A stretch of DNA of 64,000 nt from Rhizobium sp. Q54 (GCA_945860095.1 CAMAPP010000001.1:3741-67740), one strand, 5' to 3'. Positions 6,275 to 46,541 are shown, counted from the stretch's first letter. Notes: generated by a model from the sequence alone, not told the origin. Program-made: numbers and translations.

Positions 6275-8053
6275 ATGGGGCAATTGTTCCACATGTTGAC
6301 GGCGGCGGAACGGACGCGGGGTCTCGTCGTGCTCGTCGTCCTCATCGCCATGGCCGCGGTCGAGGTCGTCGGCGTGGCGGCGATCGCGGCCTTCATCGCC
6401 CTTCTGACCAACCCCGGCGCGGCTTCGGGCAATCGCTGGCTACTGGAAATCGGCCGGCAGCTCGGATCCCAGGACGGCGCGGATCTATTGCTGCCCGCCG
6501 GTCTCGCACTATTCGCCGTGATCGTTTTCCGCAATTTTTATTCGGCCTTCGCCTCCTGGTCGCGGCTGTCCTATCTCCATCACTTGCGCAAGAGGTTGGC
6601 CACGCGCCTGCTCGCGAGTTATCTAGCCCAGCCCTACGCCTTCTTTCTGCGCGCCAATAGCGCGACCCTGGTCAAGAACCTGACCTTCGAGGTCAACCAG
6701 CTGGTCACGGCCTATCTTTATTCCTGGCTGGTGATCGCGGCCGACGCGCTGACGACCTTGGCCATCCTGGGGCTTCTGCTGTACCGCGACCCCGTCATCA
6801 CCGCGATCGCGGTCGGGGTCCTCGGCACCGTCGCCTTGGCGGTTCTTCTGGGTTCGCGGAGCCTCGTGCGCGCGCTCGGCACCCGGCACCGCGCGCTGAA
6901 CGACCGCCTGCACCGCACGGCCACCGAAGCCGTCTCGGGCATAAAGGAACTCAAGGTCCTGGGCCGCGAGCGGCATTTTCTTGACCGCTTCGCCTCGATT
7001 TCCGACCGCTTCGCCGGCACGACGGTGTCCTTCCAATTGTTCAACGAATTGCCGCGCTACGGGCTCGAGATCGTCGTCTTCGGCGGCATGTTGCTGATGG
7101 CCTGGCTGGTGGTCGAGCGCGCGGGCTCGGTGCTGCCCGTCGCCGAAACGCTGGCGCTGTTCGTCGTGGCCTTCTACCGGCTTTTGCCCATCACCCACCG
7201 CATTTTGTCGAGCGCCTCGGGGCTGTCGTTCAATCACGCTATCCTGGCCGATCTTTCGGGAAGCCTTCGCGCGGGTCACGGCGCCGCAGAGGCATTGGCG
7301 CCGATGTCGCAAGCCCTGCCGTTCGCGCGCGATATCGAGTTTCGGGGCGTGCACTTTCGCTACGACGGCGCGGTCGCGGATGCGCTCGGCGGCGTCGATC
7401 TCTTGGTTCCGAAGAACGCGACGATCGCCTTCGTCGGCCCCACGGGCGTGGGCAAGACGACCATCGTCGATCTGATGCTGGGCCTGCACCGGCCGACGGG
7501 CGGCGCCATTCTCGTGGACGGGGTCGAGATAGCGCCCAATCGCGTGCGCGCCTGGCAAGCCAATGTGGGTTACGTGCCGCAAGCGATCTATCTCGCCGAC
7601 GACACCATCCGGCGCAACATCGCCCTCGGCGTGCCGGACGCGGACATCGACGAGGCGCGCATCGCCGCGGCCGCGCGCATGGCCCAGCTCGATCGCTTCG
7701 TCGAGACCTTGCCGGACAAGTACGACGCCATGGTCGGCGAGCGCGGCGTGCGGCTTTCGGGCGGACAGCGCCAACGCATCGGCATCGCCCGGGCGCTTTA
7801 CGGCCAGGCCAATGTCCTAATCTTGGACGAAGCCACCAGCGCGCTCGACGGCATCACCGAGGCCGTGATCGAGGAATCCATCGCCGGCCTGCGCGGCCAA
7901 GCAACCGTGGTGATCATCGCGCACCGTTTGTCCACGGTTCGGCATTGCGACCGGATCTACCTGCTCGAGGCCGGGCGCGTGGTGGCAGCGGGCGGGTACG
8001 ACGAATTGATGCGCGACAATCAGACCTTCCGCGCCATGGCGCGCGCCGTTTGA
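6275..8053 (+). CDS. ABC transporter, fused permease/ATPase (MsbA/PglK-type exporter)
   Basis: An N-terminal multi-TM domain is followed by Walker A (GPTGVGKTT), the signature LSGGQRQRIGIARAL and Walker B (ILILDEATSALD). Confidence 0.85.
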   Translation: MGQLFHMLTAAERTRGLVVLVVLIAMAAVEVVGVAAIAAFIALLTNPGAASGNRWLLEIGRQLGSQDGADLLLPAGLALFAVIVFRNFYSAFASWSRLSYLHHLRKRLATRLLASYLAQPYAFFLRANSATLVKNLTFEVNQLVTAYLYSWLVIAADALTTLAILGLLLYRDPVITAIAVGVLGTVALAVLLGSRSLVRALGTRHRALNDRLHRTATEAVSGIKELKVLGRERHFLDRFASISDRFAGTTVSFQLFNELPRYGLEIVVFGGMLLMAWLVVERAGSVLPVAETLALFVVAFYRLLPITHRILSSASGLSFNHAILADLSGSLRAGHGAAEALAPMSQALPFARDIEFRGVHFRYDGAVADALGGVDLLVPKNATIAFVGPTGVGKTTIVDLMLGLHRPTGGAILVDGVEIAPNRVRAWQANVGYVPQAIYLADDTIRRNIALGVPDADIDEARIAAAARMAQLDRFVETLPDKYDAMVGERGVRLSGGQRQRIGIARALYGQANVLILDEATSALDGITEAVIEESIAGLRGQATVVIIAHRLSTVRHCDRIYLLEAGRVVAAGGYDELMRDNQTFRAMARAV

Positions 8054-9864
8054 TGGCCGAGCTCGTCCTATACACGCGCGCCGACGCCGCCCGGGCCGCG
8101 GCCAGGAAACCGCCGGAGGTCTCGGCCGTGCTCGGCCTGACGCCGAATGCGCGCGCGGCGGCGGCGGGGCTTGGATTGCCCATGATCGATCCGATGACGC
8201 GCTACGGCGATGTGCGCCAGGCGCGCGACGTGGCGCGCGTCGTGCGCGTCCGGCGCCGGATGCTGAAGGCGCTCGGTCCCATAAGCGCCGTGGAGCGCGA
8301 ACTTCTCATCGACCAGTTCAACCGCGTCGCCTATTCGGCGCTGCGGCTTTGGCACACATTGGGCGAAACAGGCCCGTGGCTGGTACCCGCAGAGAGCGGC
8401 TCGTTCGCCCTAATTTCCGCGCGCGAGGCGGCGCATGGCTGCCTGCTGGCCCACATCCTCGACCCCAAGGTCGCCGCCGAGACCGAAGCGGCGGCGATCC
8501 GCACCCCGCCCTTGCCCGCGCTCTACCGCGCGCTTCGCCGCCTCGCGCTTTGGCGCCATCCATCGAGCGATGTCCGTCTGGCGCTCGGCATGGCCAAGGA
8601 GCAGTTCGGTCTGTTCGAGGCCTTCGCGCGCCAGGGCAAGGCCGCGCGCACCCTGTTCGTCGGCCTGCCGCAGCGCGGCGCGTGGGAGTACGTGAAGCTC
8701 GCGCGCGAGGCTTTGCGCAATCTCCGCGCGAAGGGCCTCGTGCAAGTGAGCTTGGCGCCGTCGCGCGCCGGCACGGATGGCGGTCTTGCGGCGCGTGCCG
8801 CGGACGCGGTGGCGGACCGGGCGATTTCACCGGCCTTCGCGCGTTACGTGCCGCTCGTCGCGGCGAAACTCGGATACTTGGCATCGGCGCGCCTGGATGC
8901 ACGACGCGTGTTCGCCCAGGCCCGGCCCCACGCCTTCACCGCGGCCGAGATTTCCACCTTCGGCAATTGGATCGTGGCCGAGGCGGCCGGCGAGGCCGGC
9001 GTGCCGCGCATGGTCATGAGCCGCAACGCCCACACCGCGCCCGACCGTCCGCTCGCACGCGATTCGGCCATCGGATACTTGCGCGCGCGCTATCCACGGG
9101 ACCTGGTGGACCAACCCCTGTTCTGGTCGCCGGCCGGCGCGCGGGCGGGGGAATGCGCCCGGCGCCCCGGCGAATGGCCACGCATTCGCCCGCTCGTCGC
9201 GCGGCGCCCGGCACAGGGCTCCCGGCCTCCGCGCGCGGCGCCGTCCGTGGAACGCGTCGTCCTGTTGGCCGACACCTATGCCGCCTGGTGGTTTCCGCAT
9301 TCCTGGATTTTCCTGACGGGCGACGAATTCGTGGCCGCGGCGCGGGAACTAGCCGCCGCGATCGCACCGCTGGCGCACACGCGCCTCGTCATTCGCGCCA
9401 AGAAAAAGCCCAAATGCGATTTGGCGGCATTGACCGCGCTCGTCGATCCCAAGGGCAATTGCGCGATCAATACGCGCGAAGTGCCGTTCGAGGAAGATTT
9501 GGCGCGGGCGGACCTGCTGGTCGCCTTTCATTCGACCACCATCGAGGAAACCCTGATCGCGCGAAAGCCGGTCCTGCTGTGGGGCGGAACGGCGCGCCAC
9601 GAATATCTTGCCGCGCGCGAGGTTCGGCCCACGGCGCAGGACCGCGGCGCCGTCTATGGCGTGCGCCGGCCAGGGGCGCTTGGCCCCATGATCGCGGCCG
9701 TGCTCGACGCCCACCACGGCCGCCCGCTGTCGGACGACGAAGCCGCCCCTTACGCCTGGCCGCGCGACACCATGAATGTCGGCGATCTGGCCGTGGAGAT
9801 CGTGAACCGGGCAAGCGCGGGCGTTCCCCCGCGAGAAAAGGAGGCCTCCCTTGCCGCACGGTGA
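8053..9864 (+). CDS. Hypothetical protein with a Capsule_synth-like (KpsS/KpsC-type) C-terminal domain; putative glycosyl/ulosonic-acid transferase
   Basis: WWFPHS and LLVAFHSTTIEETLIARKPVLLWGG resemble the YYPLHQEPE and VVTICGTAGFESAVLGRPVIAFG motifs of the KpsS-like gene at the window start. The start overlaps the ABC gene stop (TGATG). Confidence 0.45.
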   Translation: MAELVLYTRADAARAAARKPPEVSAVLGLTPNARAAAAGLGLPMIDPMTRYGDVRQARDVARVVRVRRRMLKALGPISAVERELLIDQFNRVAYSALRLWHTLGETGPWLVPAESGSFALISAREAAHGCLLAHILDPKVAAETEAAAIRTPPLPALYRALRRLALWRHPSSDVRLALGMAKEQFGLFEAFARQGKAARTLFVGLPQRGAWEYVKLAREALRNLRAKGLVQVSLAPSRAGTDGGLAARAADAVADRAISPAFARYVPLVAAKLGYLASARLDARRVFAQARPHAFTAAEISTFGNWIVAEAAGEAGVPRMVMSRNAHTAPDRPLARDSAIGYLRARYPRDLVDQPLFWSPAGARAGECARRPGEWPRIRPLVARRPAQGSRPPRAAPSVERVVLLADTYAAWWFPHSWIFLTGDEFVAAARELAAAIAPLAHTRLVIRAKKKPKCDLAALTALVDPKGNCAINTREVPFEEDLARADLLVAFHSTTIEETLIARKPVLLWGGTARHEYLAAREVRPTAQDRGAVYGVRRPGALGPMIAAVLDAHHGRPLSDDEAAPYAWPRDTMNVGDLAVEIVNRASAGVPPREKEASLAAR

Positions 9865-10858
9865 TAATTCCGCCCCACGCAAGCGCGTCGGCCTTCTCGG
9901 AATCGGCCAAGCGGGCCTGCAACATGCCCGCGCCGTAGCCGCATGCGGGCATTTGGTCGCAAGCGCCGCCGCGAGCGGAACCACCTCCCCGCGCCTCGAA
10001 GCCTTCCGCCGCGCGGCACCGGACGCAAAGATCGTCATCGGCATCGATGCCTTGCTGGCCGATGACAGCCTGGACGCGATCATCGCGGCATTGCCTTGGG
10101 ACGTGGGCCCGCGCCATCTCGACGATCTTTTGCGCCACCCCAAGCCCGTCTTGCTGGAAAAGCCGATCGCACTCGACGCCGCATCGATCGCACGTGCCCT
10201 TTGCGCGCCCGGCGCCAAGTCCAAGAACAAGATGGTCGGCTTCAACCGGCGGTTCTACGGCACGTCGGCGCGCATGCGGGCGCGCTTGGCCGAGGGCGGC
10301 CTCAAGGCCGTGCGTGTGACGATTTCCGAGGACTTAACCAGGCAGGAACGCGCGCATGGCGCGGCGGTTCTCGGCCATCTGATGGCGTTTTCCTCATCCC
10401 ACGCCCTCGACCTCGTCCGCCATCTGCTGGGCGAGCTCAAGATCGTCCGGCTTTACGGCCATGCCGAGCGCGACGTGCCGTTTCTATCCATCAACGGCTT
10501 GCTGGAGACGCGCGACGGCGTACCGGTGCTGTTGACCCTCAATGCCAGCGATCCGAGCCCGGCCGGCATTTCCTTCGTCTTCGCCGACCGCACGACCTGG
10601 AATCTGTCGCCCCTCGAAATGCTGGCGGTCTTCGACCGCTACGAGGTGGTCGAGCTGCGGCCCGGCTCGCAAATCCGGCGCTACATGCCGCATCTGCGGG
10701 ACATGCACGACGAAACGGCCGATTTCAAACCGGGCTTCGTCCAACAGATGGCGGCCTTTCTGGCGGGCGATTTCGGACCTGGCGCCACACCGGAGGATGC
10801 CTTGGCCGTGCAGACCATGATCGAAGCGATGGCGCGCGCGGCGCACCCCGGCGCATGA
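9851..10858 (+). CDS. Gfo/Idh/MocA family oxidoreductase
   Basis: The N-terminal Rossmann segment (VGLLGIGQAG...) and the EKP motif are present. Confidence 0.65.
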   Translation: MPHGDNSAPRKRVGLLGIGQAGLQHARAVAACGHLVASAAASGTTSPRLEAFRRAAPDAKIVIGIDALLADDSLDAIIAALPWDVGPRHLDDLLRHPKPVLLEKPIALDAASIARALCAPGAKSKNKMVGFNRRFYGTSARMRARLAEGGLKAVRVTISEDLTRQERAHGAAVLGHLMAFSSSHALDLVRHLLGELKIVRLYGHAERDVPFLSINGLLETRDGVPVLLTLNASDPSPAGISFVFADRTTWNLSPLEMLAVFDRYEVVELRPGSQIRRYMPHLRDMHDETADFKPGFVQQMAAFLAGDFGPGATPEDALAVQTMIEAMARAAHPGA

Positions 10859-10886: not shown

Positions 10887-11864
10887 ATGACGGAACCGAC
10901 CGCCGTGCGCGGGCCCTCGGATTATCGCGATCCGCATCTCGAGCATCGCAAGGCGCAAGAGCGCGCGCATTTCGCCGCCGGCGATGCGAATACCGATCCC
11001 ATGTCCAGCTTGATCACCATCGAGCTGAACGTCACGGAATTGTGCAATCGCAAATGCGTGTTCTGTCCGCGGGTCGATCCGGCGATCTATCCAAATCAGA
11101 ATTTGAACATGGACCGCGCGATGGTCGACCGCGTGGCCGACGAAATGGTCCGCCTCGGCCTGCGCTCGCGCCTGTCCTTTTCGGGCTTCGGCGAGCCCCT
11201 GCTGCACAAGTCCTTCCCGGAGATCGTGCGCACCCTGCGCGCGCGCCTGCCCGAGAACACCATCGAGGTGAACACCAATGGCGACCGCCTGACAGCCGCG
11301 CGCATTCGCGAACTGTTCGCTGCGGGCCTCACCTATTTGTACATCAATCTTTACGATGGGCCCGAGCAAGCGGCGCATTTCGAGGCCATGGTGGCCGATG
11401 CCGGCGCGCCCGAGGGGCGCTGGAAATTGCGGCCGCACTGGGTTGGCGCCGAGAAGGATTTCGGCCTCACGCTCAACAACCGCTCCGGCATGGTGAATGC
11501 GCCCGAGGCGGGAATCGGCCCGCTGGCGACGGCGCTGTCGACGCGCTGCCACTACCCCTTCTACAAGATGCTCATCGATTGGAACGGCGACGTGATGTTC
11601 TGCTCCAACGACTGGGGCCGCGAGATCAAGATCGGCAATCTTGGCAGCCAAGGCCTCGACGAATTGTGGCTGGCGCAAAAGATGTTCGAGGTCCGCCGCC
11701 GCCTGATGACGGGCGATCGCGGTTTTTCGCCGTGCGCGAAATGCAGCGTGCACGGCACATTGTCGGGTGGGCCGAGCTTCCGCACCCTCGTGAGGCACTA
11801 TCTCGATCGGGGCGCGCTACCGGCCGCGGAACTGCCCGCGGATTTGGCCGATTTGAAGCGCTGA
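10887..11864 (+). CDS. Radical SAM protein with C-terminal SPASM/twitch-like Cys-rich domain
   Basis: Has the CNRKCVFC (CxxxCxxC) cluster, GFGEPLL and a C-terminal Cys cluster (CHYPFYKMLIDWNGDVMFCSNDW ... CAKCSVHG). The true start may instead be the internal Met (MSSLITIELNV...). Confidence 0.75.
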   Translation: MTEPTAVRGPSDYRDPHLEHRKAQERAHFAAGDANTDPMSSLITIELNVTELCNRKCVFCPRVDPAIYPNQNLNMDRAMVDRVADEMVRLGLRSRLSFSGFGEPLLHKSFPEIVRTLRARLPENTIEVNTNGDRLTAARIRELFAAGLTYLYINLYDGPEQAAHFEAMVADAGAPEGRWKLRPHWVGAEKDFGLTLNNRSGMVNAPEAGIGPLATALSTRCHYPFYKMLIDWNGDVMFCSNDWGREIKIGNLGSQGLDELWLAQKMFEVRRRLMTGDRGFSPCAKCSVHGTLSGGPSFRTLVRHYLDRGALPAAELPADLADLKR

Positions 11865-11914: not shown

Positions 11915-12190
11915 ATGGCAATGACGGCGCCAACCTTACCCAGCACCGGCCCGATCGCCCCCCGCCTCGGCGGCGAGTTGCCGGCGGGCGCGGACGGCGC
12001 GCCCACTGCGCCGTGGGCGCTGCCGGCGGACGTGCTTGCCTTCAGCCATGACCGCGCGGCCCTGTCATGGCTTCATGCGGCGCGCGGTCCGTTCCGGAGC
12101 GCGCTGCATGAAGCCTATACCTGTCCGAGCGTGCCGGAGAATATTATCGAAATTAATACCCATGGTGATGTCGGATTAATCCATGACTGA
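11915..12190 (+). pseudogene. Truncated 5' remnant of a DegT-like aminotransferase gene (paralogue of 12998..14077)
   Basis: The product ...LAFSHDRAALSWLHAARGPFRSALHEAYTCPSVPE... aligns with ...LYFSHGRAALRWIVGARGPFAGALVCAYTWPTVPD... of the intact gene. The remnant has high GC and ends exactly at the start of the low-GC acetyltransferase gene. Confidence 0.45.
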
Positions 12191-12893
12191 CTATTTTGTT
12201 GTCGATAAAGACGTTGAAAATCTTCTGCCTCAAGATACGCTGGCCTTCGATGGGCGCGTGCGGATTGGCAGCCGCGCCAAAATATCGGTGGGCACTCGGA
12301 TCGAGCCTCCAGTCTTAGTCGCATCGGGCGCGCGCATTTTAGACGGAGTTTCGATCGGCAAGTATTCTTACGTCGGTCGCAATACCATCGTGACCCGCGC
12401 TGACATTGGGTGCTTCTGCAGCATCGCACATGATTGCCAAATTAATTATTTCCGCGGACACCCGATGGATTGGTTAAGTACTCATACATTTCAGTATGAT
12501 CGCGATAATTTTGCTTTTTGGAGCGGTTATTCCGGTTTTACAAAGCAGCATTTTGATGGCGATACCACTCAAGCAAAGGTTGTGATTGGCGCGGATGTTT
12601 GGCTCGGAGCTGGCGTGTATATATTCGGAGGCGTCACGATTGGTTCGGGTGCGATCATTGGTGCGCGCGCAATGGTTCAGCGCGACATACCTGCCTATGG
12701 CGTCGCGGTCGGGGCACCCGCCAAGGTCAAGAACTACAGGTTCGATCAAAAATTAATCGAAAAATTGCTCGCCATCGAATGGTGGACGCTTGATGAGTCA
12801 TTGCTGCGCGACTTGCCGTTTTACGACGTAAATCGCTGTCTGGAGTTGCTGGACGAGCGGACGTTAAATTCCAAGTCATCCCCTGGAATTTAG
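12183..12893 (+). CDS. Hexapeptide-repeat (left-handed beta-helix) acetyltransferase, Vat/CatB-like
   Basis: Imperfect hexapeptide repeats are present (IGADVWLGAGVYIFGGVTIGSGAIIGARAMV). The N-terminal 60 bp sampled is about 40% GC. Confidence 0.8.
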   Translation: MTDYFVVDKDVENLLPQDTLAFDGRVRIGSRAKISVGTRIEPPVLVASGARILDGVSIGKYSYVGRNTIVTRADIGCFCSIAHDCQINYFRGHPMDWLSTHTFQYDRDNFAFWSGYSGFTKQHFDGDTTQAKVVIGADVWLGAGVYIFGGVTIGSGAIIGARAMVQRDIPAYGVAVGAPAKVKNYRFDQKLIEKLLAIEWWTLDESLLRDLPFYDVNRCLELLDERTLNSKSSPGI

Positions 12894-12997
12894 TAGGAAG
12901 CACGTACCGGCGATGTTTAGAGACATGCCCCGCTCGGATCTCTGCGTGACGGAGGATATTTTCCGCCGCCCAATCCGTCTCCCGAACAGCGCGGCGC

Positions 12998-14077
12998 TTG
13001 ATGGCTGATTCTATGGATCGGACTGGCATCGAGGTCTCCTCCGCACCAGTTGGCGGGCATCGCCGCTTTGGCGGGACGATCCCTGTTGGCGCCGATGCCC
13101 TTCTCGCGACAGCCGCGCGGCTTGATCCGACATTACTCTATTTTTCGCATGGGCGTGCCGCGCTCCGTTGGATCGTCGGAGCGCGAGGACCATTCGCCGG
13201 TGCCTTGGTTTGCGCCTACACATGGCCGACAGTGCCCGATTTGCTCACTTCGCTTGGCCTCGAAGTGCGGACGTTTGACGTCGGTGATCCCGATCCGACA
13301 CGCCTCATTCCAGCCGGCAATACCCGTTGGCTGGTACTGGTGCCTGCGCTGTTCGGCGTCGAACCGTGGCTCGACTTGGGAGCATTGGCCCGCGCGCTGG
13401 GTTCTCGCGCCATGGTGGTGCTCGACGCCGCGCAGACGGCATTTGCGGCGATCGATCATGCCCCGCCTCCAGGCGGTGGCGTGTTTTCGTGCCTGCACAA
13501 ATGCACGGCGTTGGGTGATGGAGCCTTGTTAGCACTCGATCCGCCCCCGCGTTCAGATGAGCGACAGGCTCTCGAGCAAAGTCCGATGGCCATCGAATCG
13601 AGCAAAACAAGGCTTAAGGCGCGTATAGCCTTTGCGCGAGGTAACGAAGAGGGCGAGATTCAAGCGCTTGAACTGATAAGAGAAGCCGAGGCACTTTGGC
13701 CGTTAAACTTTTGCCGGATGACGGATGAATCCAAAAGCCTTTTGGCTTACCTTGATCGATCCGCGCACGGTACACGACGCCGCGCCAATGGTGCGCGGCT
13801 AACGAAGGCGCTTAACGGTCGCCTGCCATTTGCTTGGACGGGCGAGGGCGTGCCTTTCTGTCAGACAATACTCGTTGCCGCGCGTGCAACCCTGCTTCCA
13901 CGGTTACACGCGCGTCGAGTCTTTGCCTCCCCATTGTGGCCTGATGCCCACTGCGATGCCGGTCGTCACCCTCGGGCTGCGCGTTTTGCGCGCGAACTTA
14001 TAGCGCTGCCGTTAGACCAACGTTATGAGCCCGCCGACATGGACGCTCTTGCCGATCTCGTGCTCGATGCGTTGTGA
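12998..14077 (+). CDS. DegT/DnrJ/EryC1/StrS-family (sugar aminotransferase-like) protein, divergent
   Basis: The order of conserved blocks matches the DegT fold: FSHGRAAL, TWPTVPD, VVLDAAQT and GVFSCLHKCTALGDGA (candidate PLP lysine). Confidence 0.55.
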   Translation: MMADSMDRTGIEVSSAPVGGHRRFGGTIPVGADALLATAARLDPTLLYFSHGRAALRWIVGARGPFAGALVCAYTWPTVPDLLTSLGLEVRTFDVGDPDPTRLIPAGNTRWLVLVPALFGVEPWLDLGALARALGSRAMVVLDAAQTAFAAIDHAPPPGGGVFSCLHKCTALGDGALLALDPPPRSDERQALEQSPMAIESSKTRLKARIAFARGNEEGEIQALELIREAEALWPLNFCRMTDESKSLLAYLDRSAHGTRRRANGARLTKALNGRLPFAWTGEGVPFCQTILVAARATLLPRLHARRVFASPLWPDAHCDAGRHPRAARFARELIALPLDQRYEPADMDALADLVLDAL

Positions 14078-14088
14078 GTGGTGATGCG

Positions 14089-18558: not shown

Positions 18559-18559
18559 C

Positions 18560-21451: not shown

Positions 21452-21473
21452 CATAGGCCTGAATTCTCCTCAT

Positions 21474-24694: not shown

Positions 24695-24716
24695 GATTGA
24701 TCTGAAACTTACGGTC

Positions 24717-38033: not shown

Positions 38034-38063
38034 CGGGCCGGTGCCGCGCGCCGCCACATCATC

Positions 38064-39140: not shown

Positions 39141-40233
39141 CGCGCTTCGCGTTCTGCATGTCATCACGGGGCTCGGCTCCGGCGGCGCCGAGGGGCAACT
39201 GAGCGCGCTTTTGATCCAGGCGCCAAGGGCGGACATGGCGGTGCGCGTGATCGGCCTGTTGGCGGGCGGCGAACACGCGGCACGGCTGGCGGCGGCGGGC
39301 ATCGCCGTCGGCGATCTCGGCATGAAGCGCGGCATGCCCGATCCCTTCGCGGTGCCGCGTCTTGCGCGCGCGATCCGCGACTACCGGCCGGATGTCGTGC
39401 AAAGCTGGATGTACCACGCCGATCTCCTGTCCCTGGCGGCGCTAGCGCTGATCGCACGCCGCGACCGGCCGCGTCTGGTTTGGGGCGTGCGCTGCTCGGA
39501 CATGGACGTCTCGCGTTACGGCCGCACGTTGCGCTGGACCATCGCCCTATGCGCGCGTCTTGCCGCGCGGCCGGACGCGGTCGTGGTGAATTCCCGTGCC
39601 GGACAAAAAGTGCATGAGGCTCTCGGCTACCGGCCGCGTCGCTTCGCGTTCATTCCAAACGGCATCGACACGGTGCGGTTCCAGCCCAATGAGCGCGCGC
39701 GGCTGGAGATACGGCGCATGCTCGGCTTCGGCGAGAACGATATCCTGGTCATGCACGTGGCGCGCCGCGATCCGATGAAGGATCACGAGAGCTTTCTCGC
39801 AAGCCTTGACGCCGTGCCGGGCGTCACCGGAATCGCGATCGGCCTTGGCACCGAATCCCTGCCGGACAAGCCCAATCTGCGTCGGCTTGGCGCCAGAGAC
39901 GATGTCGCGCGTTTGCTGGCGGCGGGCGATCTGTTCGTTTCGAGTTCCGCCTTCGGCGAAGGATTTTCCAACGCGGTCGCCGAGGCGATGGCGACGGGCC
40001 TTCCCGCCATCGCGACCGATGTGGGCGATGCGCGCGCGATACTCGGCGATACGGGCATCGTCGTGCCCGCGCGCGACCGCGAGGCGCTTACCCAGGCCAT
40101 CGGCCGCTTCGCCGCCTTGCCGCACGCCGAGCGCCGAGCGCTTGGCCTGGCGGCGCGCCGGCGCATCGCGGACGAATTCCCGCTTGCCCGCGCCGCCGAG
40201 CGCTTCGCCGCGCTTTACCGGGAGATCGTCTAG
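39133..40233 (+). CDS. Glycosyltransferase family 4
   Basis: N-terminus VLHVITGLGSGGAEGQL with a GT4 C-terminal domain. The start overlaps the upstream stop. Confidence 0.75.
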   Translation: MADALRVLHVITGLGSGGAEGQLSALLIQAPRADMAVRVIGLLAGGEHAARLAAAGIAVGDLGMKRGMPDPFAVPRLARAIRDYRPDVVQSWMYHADLLSLAALALIARRDRPRLVWGVRCSDMDVSRYGRTLRWTIALCARLAARPDAVVVNSRAGQKVHEALGYRPRRFAFIPNGIDTVRFQPNERARLEIRRMLGFGENDILVMHVARRDPMKDHESFLASLDAVPGVTGIAIGLGTESLPDKPNLRRLGARDDVARLLAAGDLFVSSSAFGEGFSNAVAEAMATGLPAIATDVGDARAILGDTGIVVPARDREALTQAIGRFAALPHAERRALGLAARRRIADEFPLARAAERFAALYREIV

Positions 40234-40235: not shown

Positions 40236-42131
40236 ATGTGCGGGATCGCGGGAATCGTCAATCTCGACGGGCTGGGCCCCGAGATCACGGCCGCGCGCAT
40301 GGACCGCGCACTCGACTGGATGCGTCTGCGCGGCCCCGATGGCCGCGCGCGCTGGTCGGACGCGCGTTGCGCGCTCGGCCATACGCGCCTCGCGGTCATC
40401 GACCTGTCCGCCGCCGCCGCCCAACCCATGGTCCGCGACGGCCTGGTCGCGACCTTCAACGGCGAGATCTACAATTTTCGCGAGGTACGGGCGGACTTGG
40501 AACGCCTTGGCCATCGCTTTACCACCCAATCGGACACCGAAGTCCTTTTGGTCGGATGGCGCGCTTGGGGCGTCGCGCTATTGCCCAGGCTGGTCGGCAT
40601 GTTCGCGCTCGCGCTATGGGACGCGCGCGAAGGTGCGCTGTTTCTTGCGCGCGACCGCTTCGGCAAGAAACCTTTGCTCTATGCTCAGGATGGCCGGAGC
40701 CTGACCTTCGGTTCGGATTTGCGCGCGTTGGAAGCGCTCGAGGGCACGCAGCGCGAGGTCGATCCGGGTGCGCTACGCCTGCTGTTCGCGCTCCGCTACA
40801 TTCCCGATCCATTCTCTATCGCGCACGGCGTGCACCGCTTGCCCGCCGGACACTGGGCGCGGTTCGACGCCCGAGGATTGTCGATCGCCCGCTGGTATGA
40901 CCCCATGGCCGCTCGCCCGCCGCGCTACGCCGACGAGGACGAGGCCGCGCGGGATCTGGCCCTACGCTTCGATGAGGCCATCGCCGCGCGCACGGTCGCG
41001 GACGTGCCGATCGGCGCCTTCCTTTCCGGCGGCATCGATTCGGCGATCGTCACCGCATCCTTGGCGCGCCAAACCGCCCGCGTGCGCACTTTTACCGTCG
41101 GCTTTCCCGGCGCCTCGGCATATTACGAGGAACGCCCGGCCGCACGCGCCGTGGCCCGGCACCTGGGCACCGATCACACCGAAATCGAGATCACCGCGCG
41201 CGAGGCGCAGGACGCGCTCGAAGGCGTATTCGACGGCCTCGACGAGCCGTTCGCCGACAGCTCGGCCTTACCGACCTATCTTTTGAGCCGCGCCACGCGC
41301 CGCCACGTGACCGTCGCATTGTCGGGCGACGGCGCGGACGAGGTCTTCGGCGGCTACCGGAAATATCAGGGCGAATTGCTGGCCGAAACCTATCGCCGCA
41401 TCCCGTCTTGGTTGCGCACGTTCGCCCTGGAGCCGCTCCTTGGAACCTTACCCGAAGCCAAGGACAGTGCGTTGCTCGAAACTTTCCGCCGCGCGCGCCG
41501 TTTCGCCGCCCACGCCGGCAAGGTGCCCGCGGACCGGCAGGCGGGCTGGTCGCGCCTTCTTGCCGAGGACGAACTCGACGCCGTGTTGGTCGAACGCGGC
41601 ACCGCGCCGACGATCGAGGCCCTGTTCTCCGGCGCGCGCGCGCACGCGCCATCGGACGACCCGATCAACACCATGCTGGCCGCCGAGATGGCGATCGGCC
41701 TTGTCGGCGACATGCTGGTCAAGGTCGACCGCATGAGCATGGCCAATAGCCTCGAGGTGCGTTGCCCCTTTCTCGACCAACGCGTGGTCGAATGCGCTTT
41801 TGCCATGCCGGGCGGATTCAAGCTGCGCCGAGGCCAGGGCAAGCGCGTGCTGCGTCGCGCCTTCGCGGACCGCTTGCCGGCCGAAGTATTCGATCTGCCG
41901 AAGAAGGGCTTCGAGATGCCCATCGCGGACTGGCTGCGCGGCGAATTGGCGCCGTTGGCGCGCGCGGCGATCGATCCCGCACATCTTAGGCGCCAAGGCT
42001 TGTTCGATCCCGACCTGCCCGCGCGCTGGTTTGCGGATCTCGCGGCCGGACGGCGCGATACGTCGTGGCAATTGTGGACCATGATCGCGTTCCAGCAATG
42101 GTACGCCCGACGCGGACAGCCGGCACCATGA
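40236..42131 (+). CDS. asnB: Asparagine synthase (glutamine-hydrolysing), WbpS-like amidotransferase
   Basis: N-terminal MCGIAG nucleophile and the PP-loop FLSGGIDSA are present; about 630 aa. Confidence 0.85.
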   Translation: MCGIAGIVNLDGLGPEITAARMDRALDWMRLRGPDGRARWSDARCALGHTRLAVIDLSAAAAQPMVRDGLVATFNGEIYNFREVRADLERLGHRFTTQSDTEVLLVGWRAWGVALLPRLVGMFALALWDAREGALFLARDRFGKKPLLYAQDGRSLTFGSDLRALEALEGTQREVDPGALRLLFALRYIPDPFSIAHGVHRLPAGHWARFDARGLSIARWYDPMAARPPRYADEDEAARDLALRFDEAIAARTVADVPIGAFLSGGIDSAIVTASLARQTARVRTFTVGFPGASAYYEERPAARAVARHLGTDHTEIEITAREAQDALEGVFDGLDEPFADSSALPTYLLSRATRRHVTVALSGDGADEVFGGYRKYQGELLAETYRRIPSWLRTFALEPLLGTLPEAKDSALLETFRRARRFAAHAGKVPADRQAGWSRLLAEDELDAVLVERGTAPTIEALFSGARAHAPSDDPINTMLAAEMAIGLVGDMLVKVDRMSMANSLEVRCPFLDQRVVECAFAMPGGFKLRRGQGKRVLRRAFADRLPAEVFDLPKKGFEMPIADWLRGELAPLARAAIDPAHLRRQGLFDPDLPARWFADLAAGRRDTSWQLWTMIAFQQWYARRGQPAP

Positions 42132-43258
42132 AGATCTGCCAGCTTTGCGCCGTCGATTTCACGCTCCATCATTTTCTGTTGCCGTTGATGGCCGGAATGA
42201 AGGCGGCGGGCCACGAAGTGATCGGGGTGTGTTCCGACGGCGCGCTTGTTCCCGCGGCGCGCGCGGCGGGCTTTCGCATCGAATGCGTACCCATTGCGCG
42301 CAGCCACGATGTGCGCCGCCACTTCGGAACCTATCGCCGACTGGTCGAATTGTTTCGCCGCGAGCGCTTCGACATCGTCCACGTTCACACGCCCGTCGCC
42401 GCGCTGATCGGGCGCCTGGCCGCCTGGCGCGCCCGCGTGCCGGTCGTGGTTTACACCGCGCACGGATTCTATTTTCACGAACGCATGCCGCCGCCGCGAC
42501 GCGCGATGCACATCGCGCTCGAATGGCTGGGCGGCCGGCTGACCGATGTCCTTTTCACCCAGGCCGAGGAGGACGCCGCCGCCGCGCGCCGGCTTGGCCT
42601 CTGCCGCTCGGGGCGCATCCAGGCCATCGGCAACGGGGTCGATCCGGCCCGCTTCATGCCGCGCGACGGCGCGTACCGCGCGCGGGTGCGCGCGGCCCTG
42701 GACACGCGCGAGGGCGATGCCGTCATCCTGATGGTCGGTCGTCTGGTCGCGGAAAAGGGTTATGTCGAATTGCTGCGCGCCATGCGCGGTGTCCCGGCGA
42801 TTCTTTGGGTCGTGGGGGAGCGCCTTGGAAGCGATCACGCGACGAGCATCGACGGCGCGCTGGCTGAACTCGAACGCACACCTGATCTTAAATCGCGTAT
42901 CCGGCTTCTCGGTTACCGCGCGGATGTCGCCGACCTGATGGCCGCGGCCGATATTTTCACCCTGCCGTCTCACCGCGAGGGCATGCCGCGTTCAATCATC
43001 GAAGCCATGATGTGCGGGCTGCCCGTCGTGGCCACCGATATTCGCGGCTCGCGCGAGGAGGTCGTGGAAGGCGAAACCGGTTTGATGGTGCCGGTCGGCG
43101 ATGAATCGGCCTTGACGCACGCCTTGGCGCGTCTTGTGCGCGAGCCGGATTTGCGCGCGCGCTTGGGGGCAAAGGGCCGCGCGCGAGCGCTCGGCCTCTA
43201 CGACGAAGCCAAGATCGTCGCCCGGCAAATCGACGCCCTTGGCCTCGCGCGGCGATGA
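42128..43258 (+). CDS. Glycosyltransferase family 4
   Basis: GT-B fold with a C-terminal EGMPRSIIEAMMCGLPVVATD block. Confidence 0.75.
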   Translation: MKICQLCAVDFTLHHFLLPLMAGMKAAGHEVIGVCSDGALVPAARAAGFRIECVPIARSHDVRRHFGTYRRLVELFRRERFDIVHVHTPVAALIGRLAAWRARVPVVVYTAHGFYFHERMPPPRRAMHIALEWLGGRLTDVLFTQAEEDAAAARRLGLCRSGRIQAIGNGVDPARFMPRDGAYRARVRAALDTREGDAVILMVGRLVAEKGYVELLRAMRGVPAILWVVGERLGSDHATSIDGALAELERTPDLKSRIRLLGYRADVADLMAAADIFTLPSHREGMPRSIIEAMMCGLPVVATDIRGSREEVVEGETGLMVPVGDESALTHALARLVREPDLRARLGAKGRARALGLYDEAKIVARQIDALGLARR

Positions 43259-43268
43259 TGATCGCCCC

Positions 43269-44144
43269 ATGAAGATTGCCGTCGCCGGCGCCACGGGCAA
43301 AACCGGGCGGCATCTGGTGGCGCGATTGTGCTCGGACGGCCATAGGGTCGTCGCCCTTGGCCGCGATCCCGCCCGTTTCGCCGCCGTGGATTCGCGCGCG
43401 GACCGGCGGCTGGCGGATTTCACCGACGCGCGCGCCCACGCGGCCGCGCTGGAGGGCGCCGAGGCCGTCGTCAATTGCGCGGAAGCCCGCTTCACCGAAG
43501 CCGTGCTGGCGGCCTTGCCGCCCGACTGCCGACGCCTCGTGCTCACGGGCACCATGCGGCGTTTCCTCGCCGAGCCCGACGAGCCCGGCCGCCATGCCGC
43601 CCACGCCGAGACGGCGCTCGACCGGCATCTTCGCGCGCACCCCGGGCGCACGGGAATCATCGTCCATTTCGGCATGATCTACGGCCCGCCGGACGACGCA
43701 AATGTCGAACGGCTTTTGGCGGTCGTTCGGCGCTGGCCTTCCTGGCTGCCGCTGATAGCGCCCCTGCCCGGCGGCGGCCGGGCCACCGTGCAGCCCATAT
43801 ACATGGACGACGCGGTGGAGACCTTGCAGCGCGCACTCGACCGGGACGATTCGGGCCCGCCGATTACCGCCGCCGGACCGCCCATCACCTATGCCGAGAT
43901 GGTCAGGCATTGCGCGCGCGCGCTCGGCCGGTGCTCGGTCGTCCTGGCGATGCCCGCCGCGCTGCCGGCGCTGGCGATCAGTCTGGGCATGCGCCTGCCC
44001 TTCGATCCCAAGGAATGGCGGCGCACGGCCGAAAGCAAGCGCCAAAGCCTCGATCCCCTCCACGCCCGGCTGGGCATTGCGCCGCGGAGTTTTGCCGAGG
44101 GCCTCGCGGCCAAGCTCGCGCGCCTTGATCGCGCCGACATCTAA
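43269..44144 (+). CDS. NAD(P)-binding NmrA/epimerase-like protein
   Basis: N-terminal Rossmann motif IAVAGATGKTGRHLV is present. Confidence 0.6.
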   Translation: MKIAVAGATGKTGRHLVARLCSDGHRVVALGRDPARFAAVDSRADRRLADFTDARAHAAALEGAEAVVNCAEARFTEAVLAALPPDCRRLVLTGTMRRFLAEPDEPGRHAAHAETALDRHLRAHPGRTGIIVHFGMIYGPPDDANVERLLAVVRRWPSWLPLIAPLPGGGRATVQPIYMDDAVETLQRALDRDDSGPPITAAGPPITYAEMVRHCARALGRCSVVLAMPAALPALAISLGMRLPFDPKEWRRTAESKRQSLDPLHARLGIAPRSFAEGLAAKLARLDRADI

Positions 44145-44292
44145 TCCCACCCAGCGCCCGATCCCGCCCATGCCCGATCTCGGCCAGTCCCGTCCCACCC
44201 ATGTCCGATCTCGGCCACGCGCCCATCGCCGCTGGCGCACCACTCTCGGGCCGCGATTGATTCCTCGCGCGCCTTCGAGGATACAGGCGGGT

Positions 44293-45555
44293 ATGGCGCC
44301 GTCGCCCCCCCACGATTCGCCGAGCGGACTCGACCCAAGCCGGGTGCTTTCGGGCGCGGCCTTGGTCGTCTTTCCCATCGCCATCTTGGCGCCGATGCAG
44401 CTCTCGAGCCTGCTCGCGCTGACCGCGATCCTATTGTTGTGTGCGTCATGGCGCGCCAAGAACTGGCCGGTGGCGCCTTGGGCCATGCTGGCGCCAGCCA
44501 TGGCCCTTGGCGCTTGGGCCGCGCTTTCCCTGCTATGGGCGATTGACCGGCAACTCGCAGCCGAGGAAACCTCGCGCTTCGCCCTCGCGCTTGCCGGCAT
44601 CGCGGTTCTTGCGGCCACCGCGAACGGACTCGACGGCGCCGCGCGCCAACGCGTATCGCGCCACTTCGTGCGCGGCGCGCTTGCAGGCGCCATGCTTCTC
44701 ACCTTCGAAATATTGACGCGCGGCCTTGTGCTCAAGACCTTGCGCGGATTCATCCATCCCGACGCGCCGTTTCTATTCTCGACGGCCTTCAATCGCGCCA
44801 CCGCCGCGATCGCGATTCTGGTTTGGCCGTTGGCGCTCGTGCTGTTGCGCCGCCGCGCGTGGAGGCGGACGGCATTATTGCCCTTCCTGTGGGGACTTTG
44901 GGCGATCGCGGGCCTCGACAAGCATGCCTCGGCCATCGCCATGCTGACGGGCATCGCCGTGTTCGCTTTTTCGTGGTTCTCCGGCCGTGCGGCCGCGGCA
45001 ATGTTTTCCATCGCCGCTATTCTGACGATCGCCCTTGCCCCCATCGTGCCGCGTTTTGTTCTCGAGCCAAAAAGCGTGGCCAGCATCTTTCCCGATATTT
45101 CCTTCAGCGAATATCACCGGCTGATCATTTGGCGTTTCACGGCCGAGCGCATCGCCGATCGGCCGCTGCTCGGTTGGGGAATGAACAGCTCGCGCGCGAT
45201 TCCGGGCGGCAAGGATTTGGAGGAAACCGCGATTCCCGAGCGCGCGCCGCGCGGCGCCCGCGACAATCCGGGCGAGCGCCTGCCGCTCCATCCGCACAGC
45301 GCGCCCTTGCAGCTCTGGCTCGAACTTGGACTGCCGGGAGCGGCGCTGGGCGCGGCGTTTGCCGCGGGCCTGGCCTGTCGTTTGCGCCGGACCGCCATCG
45401 ACCGCGAGGGCCGCGCGGCGGCGCTCGGTGCCATGGCATCCGCCGGCGTCGTCTTCGCCATGAGTTTCAGCCTCTGGCAAAGCTGGTGGTTGGCGACCTT
45501 GGGGCTGGGTGCGGCGTTCCTGATCGCGGCCCCGCGCGGCGAGAGCGAGCGATGA
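44293..45555 (+). CDS. O-antigen ligase family (Wzy_C) membrane protein
   Basis: Multi-TM protein with a periplasmic-loop motif (HPHSAPLQLWLELGLPG). Confidence 0.65.
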   Translation: MAPSPPHDSPSGLDPSRVLSGAALVVFPIAILAPMQLSSLLALTAILLLCASWRAKNWPVAPWAMLAPAMALGAWAALSLLWAIDRQLAAEETSRFALALAGIAVLAATANGLDGAARQRVSRHFVRGALAGAMLLTFEILTRGLVLKTLRGFIHPDAPFLFSTAFNRATAAIAILVWPLALVLLRRRAWRRTALLPFLWGLWAIAGLDKHASAIAMLTGIAVFAFSWFSGRAAAAMFSIAAILTIALAPIVPRFVLEPKSVASIFPDISFSEYHRLIIWRFTAERIADRPLLGWGMNSSRAIPGGKDLEETAIPERAPRGARDNPGERLPLHPHSAPLQLWLELGLPGAALGAAFAAGLACRLRRTAIDREGRAAALGAMASAGVVFAMSFSLWQSWWLATLGLGAAFLIAAPRGESER

Positions 45556-46541
45556 CGGCGATTTGGCCGATCGCCGCCTTGATGGCCGTGGCGGCCGCTT
45601 GCGCGACGTGGTTCGCGACGCGCCAGGTGCTGGGCTATCTCGAGCGCCGAGGAATTTTCGATCGCCCGAACGAGCGCAGCAGCCACAACGCCCCCGTGCC
45701 GCGAGGCGGAGGGTTGGCGGTCATCGGCGTTCTCGTTCCCGCCTTCGTCCTTGCCGGCGTGTTGCTGGGCGCGCCGGAGACATGGTACGTCGTGGCGGCG
45801 CTCGCGGGATTGGCCGGCATATCCTGGATCGACGATATCAAAGGGCTGCCGGCGGGCACGCGCTTGATCGCGCAGGCCGCCGCCGTGGCGCTGGGACTTC
45901 TGGCCCTGCCGGGTCCCATCGCCCAGGGCTTGCTGGCGCCGTGGCTCGACACCGCGCTCGCGGCGCTAGCCTGGTTGTGGTTCGTCAATCTGTTCAATTT
46001 CATGGACGGGATCGACGGCATTGCCGGCGCCGAGGCGACGGCACTTACCATCGGGATCGTCCTCGTCGCCGCCCTGCCCCGTGGCCCGGACGATCTTGTC
46101 CTATATGCCGCCGCGGTGGGCGGCACGGCGCTCGGCTTCCTGCCGTGGAACTGGCATCGCGCGAAGATTTTTCTCGGCGACGTGGGCAGCGTGCCGCTCG
46201 GCTTTGCCCTCGGATGGCTGCTCCTGAGCCTTGCCGCGTCGGGCGCATGGATCGCGGCCTTGGTTTTGCCGCTTTACTACCTCGCCGATTCGACGCTCAC
46301 GCTTGCGCGCCGTGCGGCGCGCGGCGAGCCCGTCTGGCGTGCCCATCGCGAGCATTTCTACCAGCGCGCGGTGCGCGGCGGCCTGTCGCACGACCGGGTA
46401 GTGCACGCGATCGGCGCGGGCAATCTCGCGCTCGTGGGGCTCGCGGTCGCCGGCGAGGCAAGCCTTGGCTGGAGCGTTCTGCCGATGGCCGTGGGGGTGG
46501 TGGCGGTCGTGCTGTGGCGCCTGAGCTTGGGGCGGCCCTAG
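45552..46541 (+). CDS. Undecaprenyl-phosphate N-acetylhexosamine-1-phosphate transferase (WecA/WbpL, MraY family)
   Basis: NLFNFMDGIDGIAG and DVGS motifs and multiple TM segments are present. Confidence 0.8.
   Translation: MTAIWPIAALMAVAAACATWFATRQVLGYLERRGIFDRPNERSSHNAPVPRGGGLAVIGVLVPAFVLAGVLLGAPETWYVVAALAGLAGISWIDDIKGLPAGTRLIAQAAAVALGLLALPGPIAQGLLAPWLDTALAALAWLWFVNLFNFMDGIDGIAGAEATALTIGIVLVAALPRGPDDLVLYAAAVGGTALGFLPWNWHRAKIFLGDVGSVPLGFALGWLLLSLAASGAWIAALVLPLYYLADSTLTLARRAARGEPVWRAHREHFYQRAVRGGLSHDRVVHAIGAGNLALVGLAVAGEASLGWSVLPMAVGVVAVVLWRLSLGRP

Follow-up and report, generated by a model that had tools for sequence, protein, structure and literature searches.

The 64,000-nt stretch of the Rhizobium sp. 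Q54 assembly studied here (GCA_945860095.1, CAMAPP010000001.1:3741-67740; hereafter the window) carries a large glycan biosynthesis locus. We see an even chance that the locus encodes a pathway of the Wzk/PglK type with en bloc ligation of the glycan, most likely to lipid A-core. The central components are an ATP-binding cassette (ABC) exporter related to PglK, a Wzy_C-family membrane enzyme with the WaaL fold, and an initiating transferase of the WbpL/WecA family, and neither Wzx nor Wzz was found in the locus. The closest homologues are named "MAG: Alphaproteobacteria bacterium" (MAG, metagenome-assembled genome), Stellaceae, and Phaeospirillum, which indicates an uncultured alphaproteobacterium as the source.

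Genes were called using GC content at third codon positions (GC3) together with Pfam and NCBIfam scans of the window. The upstream sequence was taken from L001, a part of a 109-kb ENA metagenome contig that is 100% identical to the window over the window's first 12.6 kb and extends 8.2 kb beyond its start, and from a sibling contig, L031, which adds a further 6 kb (about 14 kb together). A first-pass annotation of the window had described an apparent ABC-transporter-dependent en bloc pathway at 6275-46541. Pfam recovered all of its named components (the ABC exporter, four GT4 glycosyltransferases, the PMT_2 protein, the Wzy_C protein, WbpL, and WbpM) at or near the positions given, but the bounds were too narrow: the WbpM gene lies just past them, and the whole locus comprises about 62 kb, beginning 14 kb or more 5' of the window and ending with WbpM at 48534. 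Between 959 and 48534 the genes form a single array on the plus strand, and many neighbours have 4-nt stop/start overlaps. WbpM is followed on its 3' side by purH, a major facilitator superfamily (MFS) gene, a gene for a 1604-aa NAD-glutamate dehydrogenase (GDH), and a tRNA-Gly gene.

The exporter is a single polypeptide with an N-terminal six-helix membrane domain and a C-terminal nucleotide-binding domain (NBD) (Pfam ABC_membrane at residues 71-282 and ABC_tran at residues 373-522). Its residues 3-569 align with residues 4-560 of PglK (5c73, E 1.8e-74), the best bacterial half-transporter among the PDB sequences. A phmmer search of the PDB with the transmembrane domain (TMD) only gave E 1.2e-17 (67.9 bits) for PglK versus 3.3e-6 (30.3 bits) for the best MsbA. 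R86, R261, R302, and R309 of the exporter stand opposite R86, R260, R302, and R309 of PglK. These arginines of the outward-open PglK cavity are functionally relevant and are likely to form the binding site for the pyrophosphate of lipid-linked oligosaccharides (PMC5395944). R261 and R302 are near-invariant in 120 homologues of the exporter. The family is large: 3,995 homologues were scored at E <= 1e-30, including proteins of Geomonas, Longimicrobium, and Gemmatimonadales, and several homologues are labelled PglK by the Joint Genome Institute (JGI). Judged by its sequence, the exporter is best described as a PglK-type relative, and neither as a PglK equivalog, nor as an MsbA orthologue, nor as a Wzm/Wzt transporter. 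The identity of the exporter as MsbA was rejected because its TMD is much less similar to MsbA than to PglK and its score is far below the MsbA cutoff. Thus, of the earlier label "PglK/Wzk/MsbA-like", the PglK part is borne out by the TMD scores and the four arginines, and the MsbA part is withdrawn. No ABC2_membrane match was found in the window, where the fused exporter is the only ABC transporter by Pfam and by a scan of membrane open reading frames (ORFs). The term "ABC-transporter-dependent" is therefore misleading in its classical sense, which implies the absent Wzm/Wzt; the correct analogue is the Wzk pathway of Helicobacter pylori.

To look for other membrane proteins, we collected, in all six frames, every stretch between two stop codons that encodes four or more hydrophobic segments. 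The polytopic ORFs of the window are those of the ABC exporter, PMT_2, Wzy_C, WbpL, and WbpM proteins, the MFS protein past purH, and FtsK; a looser per-gene hydrophobicity scan additionally flags the CDP-alcohol phosphatidyltransferase. For Wzx, the window, L001, and L031 gave no Polysacc_synt or MATE-type Pfam match, and every polytopic ORF of their six frames had another assignment. For Wzz and other polysaccharide co-polymerases (PCP), there was neither a Pfam match nor a bitopic ORF of unknown function in the window, and none was found in the 14 kb upstream; the approximately 62 kb hold no gene for a PCP or for an outer-membrane polysaccharide export (OPX) protein. An additional Wzy_C gene was not found in the upstream 14 kb either. 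The first-pass annotation had reported that Wzx, Wzy, and Wzz are all missing. This stands for Wzx and Wzz but is too firm for Wzy, since the Wzy_C protein may be such a polymerase. Wzx or Wzy genes located just outside the window, which had been named as a threat to the proposal, are absent from the upstream 14 kb, and the genes 3' of WbpM are housekeeping ones.

The Wzy_C protein has the WaaL membrane fold, and its best structural match is WaaL, in a comparison library that held no Wzy structure. Seven residues (H275, R276, H333, H335, Q340, E344, and G346) are invariant in 40 homologues, as expected of the Wzy_C catalytic loop. R276 and the HPH motif align with the R and HSH of the Wzy_C motif of an O-oligosaccharyltransferase (O-OTase), in an alignment that is non-significant overall; the corresponding motif residues of the periplasmic loop in Escherichia coli WaaL are R288 and H338 (PMC3643930). 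Among PDB sequences, the protein alone has no match, and a profile of the 40 sequences has a single, non-significant one, the "oligosaccharyltransferase" 9rmk (E 0.68). PglL O-OTases are set apart from WaaL by the PglL_A motif (PF15864), and their genes are typically located outside lipopolysaccharide (LPS) loci, so that a gene within a glycan locus has a WaaL-like context (PMC3643930). With a threshold as loose as E <= 1, none of the 40 sequences of the family matched PglL_A or Wzy_C_2, which places the protein outside PglL as far as such motifs can tell. In every relative examined, the gene lies between AsnB/GT4 genes and WbpL, and it is translationally coupled to WbpL; no pilin gene or other acceptor gene is nearby. 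The suggestion of protein O-glycosylation made in the first-pass annotation thus finds no direct support. We regard the protein as more likely to be a ligase than a polymerase because of the WaaL fold, the lack of a chain-length regulator, and a gene position that is kept while the glycosyltransferase content changes.

This last point comes from comparison with related genomes. The relatives L005, L006, L007, and L008 share the gene order WbqC(-GNAT)-GT4-PMT_2-FabH-like-GT4-GT4-AsnB-GT4-[variable slot]-Wzy_C-WbpL-WbpM-purH-MFS-GDH. All genes of this block are orthologous, with identities of 55-99%; purH is 73-92% identical, and Wzy_C goes down to 45% (87% in L005, about 54-56% in L006/L007, and 45% in L008). 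The right-hand block therefore appears to be conserved at roughly the depth of a genus or family and not to be strain-variable. The AsnB gene is just 5' of the Wzy_C region in all relatives. In a distant MAG, GCA_016202695.1 (L028 and L032, one 79-kb contig), purH is preceded by AsnB-Wzy_C-WbpL-GT4-WbpM, with AsnB immediately 5' of Wzy_C, which is 35% identical to the protein studied here. Upstream of that block are PMT_2, GT4, and GT2 genes, methyltransferases, and a sulfotransferase, i.e., a different glycosyltransferase set. A divergent operon of the same contig encodes an ABC orthologue (44-46%), HisF and HisH, a PtmE-like protein, a cytidylyltransferase, and a 600-aa protein; the ABC and nonulosonic-acid genes are about 9 kb from PMT_2 and about 17 kb from AsnB-Wzy_C-WbpL-GT4-WbpM-purH. 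No Wzx was found in this locus. Since ABC, PMT_2, Wzy_C, WbpL, WbpM, and AsnB persist at the same site while the glycosyltransferases change, the exporter probably belongs to the same system as the block. By the same reasoning, the Wzy_C protein would tolerate different donors, as a ligase or oligosaccharyltransferase does and a repeat-unit-specific polymerase does not. A Phaeospirillum MAG (L033) also pairs a Wzy_C homologue with a PMT_2 gene.

The pathway may be outlined as follows. WbpM and WbpL would prime undecaprenyl phosphate with a sugar of the 6-deoxy-N-acetylhexosamine (HexNAc) type. The four GT4 enzymes would then elongate the glycan within the cytoplasm, drawing on 2,3-diamino and amidated sugars supplied by the products of the WbpB/D/E-like and AsnB-like genes, and at least one uncharacterised soluble protein, mainly the 603-aa candidate, would add a legionaminic-acid-type nonulosonic acid with an acetamidino group. 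The PglK/Wzk-like half-transporter, and not Wzx, would flip the finished glycan linked to undecaprenyl pyrophosphate (Und-PP). In the periplasm, the WaaL-fold Wzy_C enzyme would transfer it en bloc, with lipid A-core as the most probable acceptor. PMT_2, a glycosyltransferase of the GT-C fold, may add a sugar taken from a polyprenyl-phosphate donor; the methyltransferase-GT2 fusion encoded upstream would make this donor, and the TIGR00374 protein would flip it. In this outline, the substrates, the sequence of the steps, the acceptor, and the length of the glycan are what we infer from the genes. The en bloc pathway of the first-pass annotation agrees with the PglK-like exporter, the lack of Wzx and Wzz, and the recurrence of the exporter with Wzy_C, WbpL, and WbpM; the choice of en bloc transfer over a polymer is likewise our inference.

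Several observations weigh against this reading. For R86 and R309, conservation drops to about one third of the 120 ABC homologues, and the best NCBIfam matches of the exporter (HepA, PglK, and MsbA) are all under the equivalog cutoffs, at 303.7 versus 725, 294.3 versus 1000, and 283.2 versus 602 bits, respectively. ABC orthologues are most tightly linked to nonulosonic-acid genes and not to WbpL and Wzy_C, and two of their loci (L029 and L030) have no initiating enzyme within 10 kb of the ABC gene. Neither the fold nor the Pfam match of the Wzy_C protein tells a WaaL apart from a Wzy or a non-PglL O-oligosaccharyltransferase. The four GT4 genes, as their sequences indicate, are kept in relatives with purH 73-76% identical, which is atypical for an O antigen. 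Finally, Wzx, Wzz, or a second WaaL may be encoded elsewhere, i.e., about 18 kb farther upstream or in the rest of the genome.

O-glycans are conserved at the genus level in Burkholderia and Bacteroidota, unlike hypervariable O antigens, and the set found here, which is kept across lineages at this purH divergence, resembles the former more. The Wzy_C protein could be a protein O-oligosaccharyltransferase, serving a lineage-conserved general O-glycosylation in which periplasmic or surface proteins receive an oligosaccharide with nonulosonic acid, PglK-type flipping being unchanged. We find this rather unlikely. The Wzy_C family does include O-OTases (PMC3643930), the only PDB match of the family profile is the non-significant one to 9rmk, and H. 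pylori WaaL has been claimed also to glycosylate proteins (PMC9553153). However, the PglL_A and Wzy_C_2 domains are missing in 40 of 40 members, the protein is WaaL-sized and matches WaaL best in structure, and its gene is coupled to WbpL within the glycan locus, with no acceptor gene nearby, while PglL genes are typically found outside LPS loci (PMC3643930).

A second explanation, to which we assign a low probability, treats the Wzy_C protein as a Wzy-type polymerase and the exporter as a flippase of single repeat units, with WaaL and perhaps Wzz encoded elsewhere in the genome. PglK can stand in for Wzx in E. coli, and it is common for Wzz and WaaL to be encoded away from the O-antigen locus. 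PF04932 also spans Wzy and ExoQ-type polymerases, several homologues are named "ExoQ" by JGI, and Wzy_C is the fastest-evolving gene of the block (about 54 and 45% identity versus 58-80% and 55-73% for its neighbours). Yet a repeat-unit-specific polymerase would not be expected to retain its orthologue and position in L032, where the glycosyltransferase set is different. The lack of a PCP or OPX gene in the approximately 62 kb and the closest solved structure, that of a ligase, also argue against a polymerase, with the proviso on the comparison library given above.

It is also improbable, in our view, that the window contains two adjacent systems. According to this explanation, the left part (ABC, the 603-aa protein, the nonulosonic-acid genes, the CDP-alcohol phosphatidyltransferase, and a KpsC/S-like 501-aa protein) would export a separate nonulosonic-acid glycoconjugate, e.g., a lipid-anchored capsule-like polymer, and the right block (the GT4s, PMT_2, Wzy_C, WbpL, and WbpM) would use a distant flippase. 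The unbroken array of genes on one strand, in which stop and start codons overlap, and the single ops-like leader with an RfaH-like regulator point to one system, as does the fact that two lineages whose proteins are 35-46% identical have both parts beside purH; moreover, the left part has no initiating enzyme, KpsM/T/E/D, or outer-membrane export genes of its own. Two systems would fit the constant surroundings of the ABC orthologues (44-92% identity), which always sit among nonulosonic-acid genes with the gene for the 603-aa protein after them, as well as L029 and L030, with no WbpL or Wzy_C within 10 kb, and the Phaeospirillum Wzy_C/PMT_2 locus, with no ABC within 10 kb. The left part also has lower GC content and differs among close relatives (in L010, the ABC is 92% and the cytidylyltransferase 53% identical), and the 501-aa protein has a weak Capsule_synth match.

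It is quite doubtful that ABC, Wzy_C without PglL_A, PMT_2, WbpL, and WbpM serve a general protein O-glycosylation shared throughout a lineage of uncultured Alphaproteobacteria, with a new WaaL-sized class of O-oligosaccharyltransferases, a conserved and possibly sulfated oligosaccharide capped with nonulosonic acid, and the 603-aa protein as a new family of nonulosonic-acid glycosyltransferases; such a system would be, to our knowledge, the first O-linked one fed by a PglK-type flippase.

The preferred Wzk/PglK-type route is rare but already known, and the locus is an uncharacterised member of it in a new lineage. O-antigen synthesis in H. pylori proceeds through WecA, Wzk, and WaaL (Hug et al. 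2010, PMC2841628). The predicted likeness comprises a WecA-family initiator acting on undecaprenyl phosphate, a glycan built wholly by cytoplasmic glycosyltransferases, a single-polypeptide PglK-homologous ABC transporter that replaces both Wzx and Wzm/Wzt, a WaaL-family transferase, and the lack of Wzz; H. pylori also has no Wzy, whereas here the Wzy_C protein could be a polymerase. Unlike in H. pylori, an epsilonproteobacterium with scattered genes and Lewis antigens, the system described here is known from genes alone, belongs to an alphaproteobacterial host, occupies one locus of about 62 kb by purH, is predicted to use legionaminic-acid-type, acetamidino, amidated, and possibly sulfated sugars, and has an extra GT-C (PMT_2) decoration module. 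In our literature search, the Wzk/PglK-type route to surface glycans was documented essentially only for H. pylori.

The Campylobacter jejuni pgl system (PglK, 5c73; PMC5395944) shares a flippase gene inside the glycan locus, a predicted Und-PP-linked oligosaccharide substrate, and an ABC transporter alignable from end to end, TM1-TM2 region included, with R86, R260, R302, and R309 conserved. It differs in its PglB/STT3 oligosaccharyltransferase, in place of which a Wzy_C/WaaL-type transferase is found here, and in priming by a PglC-type instead of a WbpL/WecA-type enzyme; the PglK model score of the exporter (294 bits) is below the cutoff (1000 bits). The O-specific antigen loci of Pseudomonas aeruginosa likewise have WbpM and WbpL at the distal end, WbpB/D/E-like genes for 2,3-diacetamido sugars, and a WbpS-like amidotransferase. 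P. aeruginosa has Wzx, Wzy, and Wzz in the O-antigen locus and WaaL elsewhere; unlike there, neither Wzx nor Wzz is recognisable here, nor is a definite Wzy, and an ABC transporter and a Wzy_C protein are present instead. With Wzm/Wzt and KpsM/T pathways (e.g., that of the poly-legionaminic acid O antigen of Legionella pneumophila), the system would share, by analogy, completion of the glycan in the cytoplasm and ATP-driven export, and with the L. pneumophila example also genes for legionaminic-acid-type and acetamidino biosynthesis. However, it has no ABC-2 permease with a separate NBD, as the exporter has the fused type IV (PglK/MsbA) architecture, and no KpsE/D or KpsC/S orthologues save one weak Capsule_synth match. 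Three-component Gtr/Arn modification systems are resembled by the PMT_2 GT-C enzyme in the window with the AglJ/ArnC-like GT2-methyltransferase fusion and the TIGR00374 protein upstream; unlike in Gtr/Arn, these components are split over two divergent operons, the GT2 is below the family cutoffs, and the flippase-like protein belongs with MprF/LPG_synthase_TM proteins instead of GtrA or ArnE/F.

Judging by this locus and its relatives, the Wzk/PglK logic appears to operate in environmental Alphaproteobacteria as well. Given the size of the ABC subfamily, replacement of the flippase by a PglK-like protein may be under-recognised when O-antigen loci are classed by Wzx/Wzy or Wzm/Wzt. A single-locus source of a putative, promiscuous flippase-ligase pair could interest glycoengineers. 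The importance of the locus would rise if the acceptor were protein or if the 603-aa family were a new class of glycosyltransferases; otherwise the system is ordinary in kind.

The 603-aa protein is a candidate member of a new family of CMP-nonulosonate-dependent glycosyltransferases, a proposal based on its context and on weak matches. It has no match in Pfam, NCBIfam, or the PDB, and family profiles of 5 and 66 sequences found nothing meaningful in the PDB. The family, comprising 453 representative clusters, is a candidate for nonulosonic-acid transfer; six of 66 members weakly match DUF6716 ("putative glycosyltransferase"), and a few match GT-B families. The gene is directly 3' of the ABC orthologue in L010, L029, L030, L034/35, and L036 and in the same operon in L028, while distant family members adjoin cytidylyltransferase genes with no ABC. 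A single-sequence AlphaFold model was unusable (mean predicted confidence, pLDDT, 35). An 11-sequence alignment was used to scan metagenomes for the family. A genome search with the ABC protein gave one true orthologue (L010); the other 17 matches were NBD-only matches to unrelated ABCs.

The suggestion of a legionaminic-acid (Leg)-containing glycan is reasonable at the family level, as the NeuC, NeuB, and NeuD types score above the NCBIfam cutoffs. For the upstream dehydratase, LegB is the best model (411 bits, cutoff 475), and for the upstream aminotransferase, LegC is the best (354 bits, cutoff 420; PseC, 235 bits). WbuX beside the HisH- and HisF-like genes indicates, at the sequence level, an acetamidino group. 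GC content is 0.54-0.59 over approximately 12000-24700 versus 0.65-0.70 in the flanks, coinciding with the NeuC/NeuB/NeuD/cytidylyltransferase cassette, which suggests its horizontal acquisition. Two NeuC paralogs are found in the cassette and two cytidylyltransferases in the locus, yet there is one NeuB. The WbpB/D/E-like, VimE-like, FkbM, radical S-adenosylmethionine (SAM), and FabH-like genes, the two AsnB-type genes, and the genes for synthesis of 3'-phosphoadenosine 5'-phosphosulfate (PAPS) suggest a heavily modified, possibly sulfated glycan. The PAPS genes and the Sulfotransfer_3 genes of relatives point to sulfation.

Table 1. Features of the window and of its upstream sequence (positions in the window unless L001 or L031 is given; SDR, short-chain dehydrogenase/reductase; APS, adenosine 5'-phosphosulfate)
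Feature	Position	Strand	Evidence or remark
CDP-alcohol phosphatidyltransferase, membrane protein, possible phospho-substituent transfer	959-1786	+	Pfam CDP-OH_P_transf, E 6e-10; hydrophobic segments
HisF-like protein	1783-2583	+	Pfam His_biosynth; part of putative acetamidino-forming trio
HisH-like protein	2580-3218	+	GATase annotation in L001; part of the same trio
WbuX N-acetyl sugar amidotransferase	3227-4483	+	NCBIfam WbuX, 356.7 bits (cutoff 203.2)
Cytidylyltransferase	4509-5237	+	Pfam CTP_transf_3; NCBIfam PseF-like, below cutoff
CBS + sugar-1-phosphate nucleotidyltransferase, PtmE-like	5234-6271	+	Pfam CBS, NTP_transferase; NCBIfam below cutoff
Fused TMD-NBD ABC exporter, PglK/Wzk-like candidate flippase	6275-8053	+	Pfam ABC_membrane + ABC_tran
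603-aa soluble protein, uncharacterised family, candidate GT-B nonulosonic-acid transferase	8053-9864	+	Directly 3' of ABC gene
GFO/IDH/MocA oxidoreductase	9851-10858	+	Pfam
Radical SAM/SPASM enzyme	10887-11864	+	Pfam
Lower-GC nonulosonic-acid cassette	12183-24694	+	Also holds hexapeptide acyltransferase, SDR, GNAT/FemAB-like, GFO (Pfam)
NeuC-type hydrolysing 2-epimerases (two)	15045-16244, 18560-19732	+	NCBIfam NeuC_NnaA, 420.6 and 446.7 (cutoff 235.9)
NeuB synthase	19725-20804	+	NCBIfam NeuB_NnaB, 453.8 (cutoff 399.65)
NeuD-family acetyltransferase	20801-21451	+	NCBIfam NeuD, 204.8 (cutoff 160.8)
Second cytidylyltransferase	22401-23117	+	Pfam CTP_transf_3; NCBIfam below cutoff
526-aa protein without Pfam match	23114-24694	+	Soluble
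Sugar-modification genes: FkbM methyltransferase, AsnB-like amidotransferase, and others in separate rows	25745-34415	+	Pfam
VimE-like deacetylase (DUF7033)	28563-29864	+	NCBIfam VimE model, 93 bits, below cutoff
241-aa protein without Pfam match	29861-30586	+	Soluble
WbpB/WbpD/WbpE-like trio	30583-33289	+	Pfam
GNAT+WbqC fusion	33282-34415	+	Pfam
GT4 a	34412-35644	+	Pfam; orthologues 89, 65, 55% identical in L005, L006, L008
PMT_2, ArnT-like GT-C periplasmic glycosyltransferase	~35641-37080	+	Pfam PMT_2, E 2e-10; start approximate
FabH-like ketosynthase III, probable unusual N-acyl group	37077-38033	+	Pfam ACP_syn_III; NCBIfam below cutoff
GT4 b	38064-39140	+	Pfam; orthologues conserved
GT4 c	39133-40233	+	Pfam; orthologues conserved
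Asparagine-synthase-type amidotransferase (AsnB; WbpS / XrtA-associated type)	40236-42131	+	Pfam Asn_synthase, 1e-101; NCBIfam asn_synth_AEB above cutoff
GT4 d	42128-43258	+	Pfam; orthologues 91, 74, 70% identical
NAD-binding epimerase-like ORF, variable slot	43269-44144	+	Partial Pfam NAD_binding_10 / Epimerase match
Wzy_C-family membrane enzyme, WaaL fold, candidate en bloc ligase	44293-45555	+	420 aa
WbpL/WecA-family polyprenyl-phosphate HexNAc-1-phosphate transferase, initiating enzyme	45552-46541	+	Glycos_transf_4, 8.6e-31; NCBIfam WecA-like below cutoff
WbpM-type membrane-anchored UDP-HexNAc 4,6-dehydratase, last locus gene	46570-48534	+	Polysacc_synt_2, 1.3e-111; NCBIfam PseB/FnlA-like
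tRNA-Gly(GCC)	57263-57337	-	Sole RNA gene detected in window
Divergent LegB-like dehydratase; LegC-like aminotransferase; 349-aa protein; 501-aa protein	L001, 8.2 kb		Upstream genes
Na_H_Exchanger-family membrane protein, APS kinase, ATP sulfurylase, pyruvate-kinase-like protein	L001 3402-7687		Within glycan operon
391-aa protein; TIGR00374 flippase-like (LPG_synthase_TM) protein; methyltransferase-GT2 fusion; methyltransferase	L031, 6 kb		Upstream genes
RfaH-like NusG paralog + MarR_EPS-like regulator	L031 8775-9922		Upstream walk ends here

Among the soluble ORFs, those at 8053-9864, 12998-14077, 14078-14491, 23114-24694, 24854-25720, and 29861-30586 have no Pfam match even at E 10. The PMT_2 protein has 9-11 hydrophobic segments and no match among PDB sequences. 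Of the proteins encoded upstream, the TIGR00374 flippase-like one scores 56 bits (cutoff 43.2), and the methyltransferase-GT2 fusion resembles AglJ, dolichyl-phosphate-hexose, and ArnC-type enzymes with scores below the cutoffs.

An ops-like element, GCGGTAGCTTG, is located at L001 1101-1111 (plus strand), about 7.1 kb before the window begins. It lies 68 nt 5' of the gene that opens the long operon, just past a strikingly AT-rich stretch (L001 ~865-940). Compared with the E. coli ops consensus, GGCGGTAGnnTG, it fits 11 of the 12 positions. A single copy of the motif is present in L001, where 0.08 would be expected, and none in the 64-kb window; eight of 100 shuffles gave at least one match. 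It is also found in L030, 5' of an HTH_24 gene. The RfaH-like and MarR_EPS-like regulators are encoded about 6 kb upstream of the element, and the RfaH model gives the NusG paralog 112.7 bits, below the cutoff of 144.5. The ops-like leader and the RfaH-like protein suggest RfaH-type antitermination of an operon of more than 55 kb in an alphaproteobacterium, as judged from sequence.

No mobile-element signature was found at the locus boundary near purH, and a scan for terminator and promoter consensus sequences around WbpM and purH gave nothing useful. Four long antisense ORFs on the minus strand (24824-26845, 37575-39335, 42996-45086, and 47818-49878; 586-696 aa) were rejected as genes and regarded as high-GC artefacts because the GC3 signal and the Pfam matches fall on the plus-strand genes.

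Some further observations concern individual enzymes. The VimE model describes a UDP-2,3-diacetamido-2,3-dideoxy-glucuronate deacetylase, and its relative in the window adjoins the WbpB/D/E-like genes; no gene for a UDP-GlcNAc 6-dehydrogenase (WbpA-like) was seen in the locus. Sulfotransfer_3 genes are located beside the ABC gene or the 600-aa gene in L028 and L029, and no sulfotransferase was recognised in the window. Instead of the epimerase-like ORF of the variable slot, relatives carry unrelated ORFs of 85-137 aa or an antisense FkbM methyltransferase gene. Radical SAM genes like the one at 10887-11864 recur near ABC or 600-aa genes in L029, L033, L042, L043, and L045.

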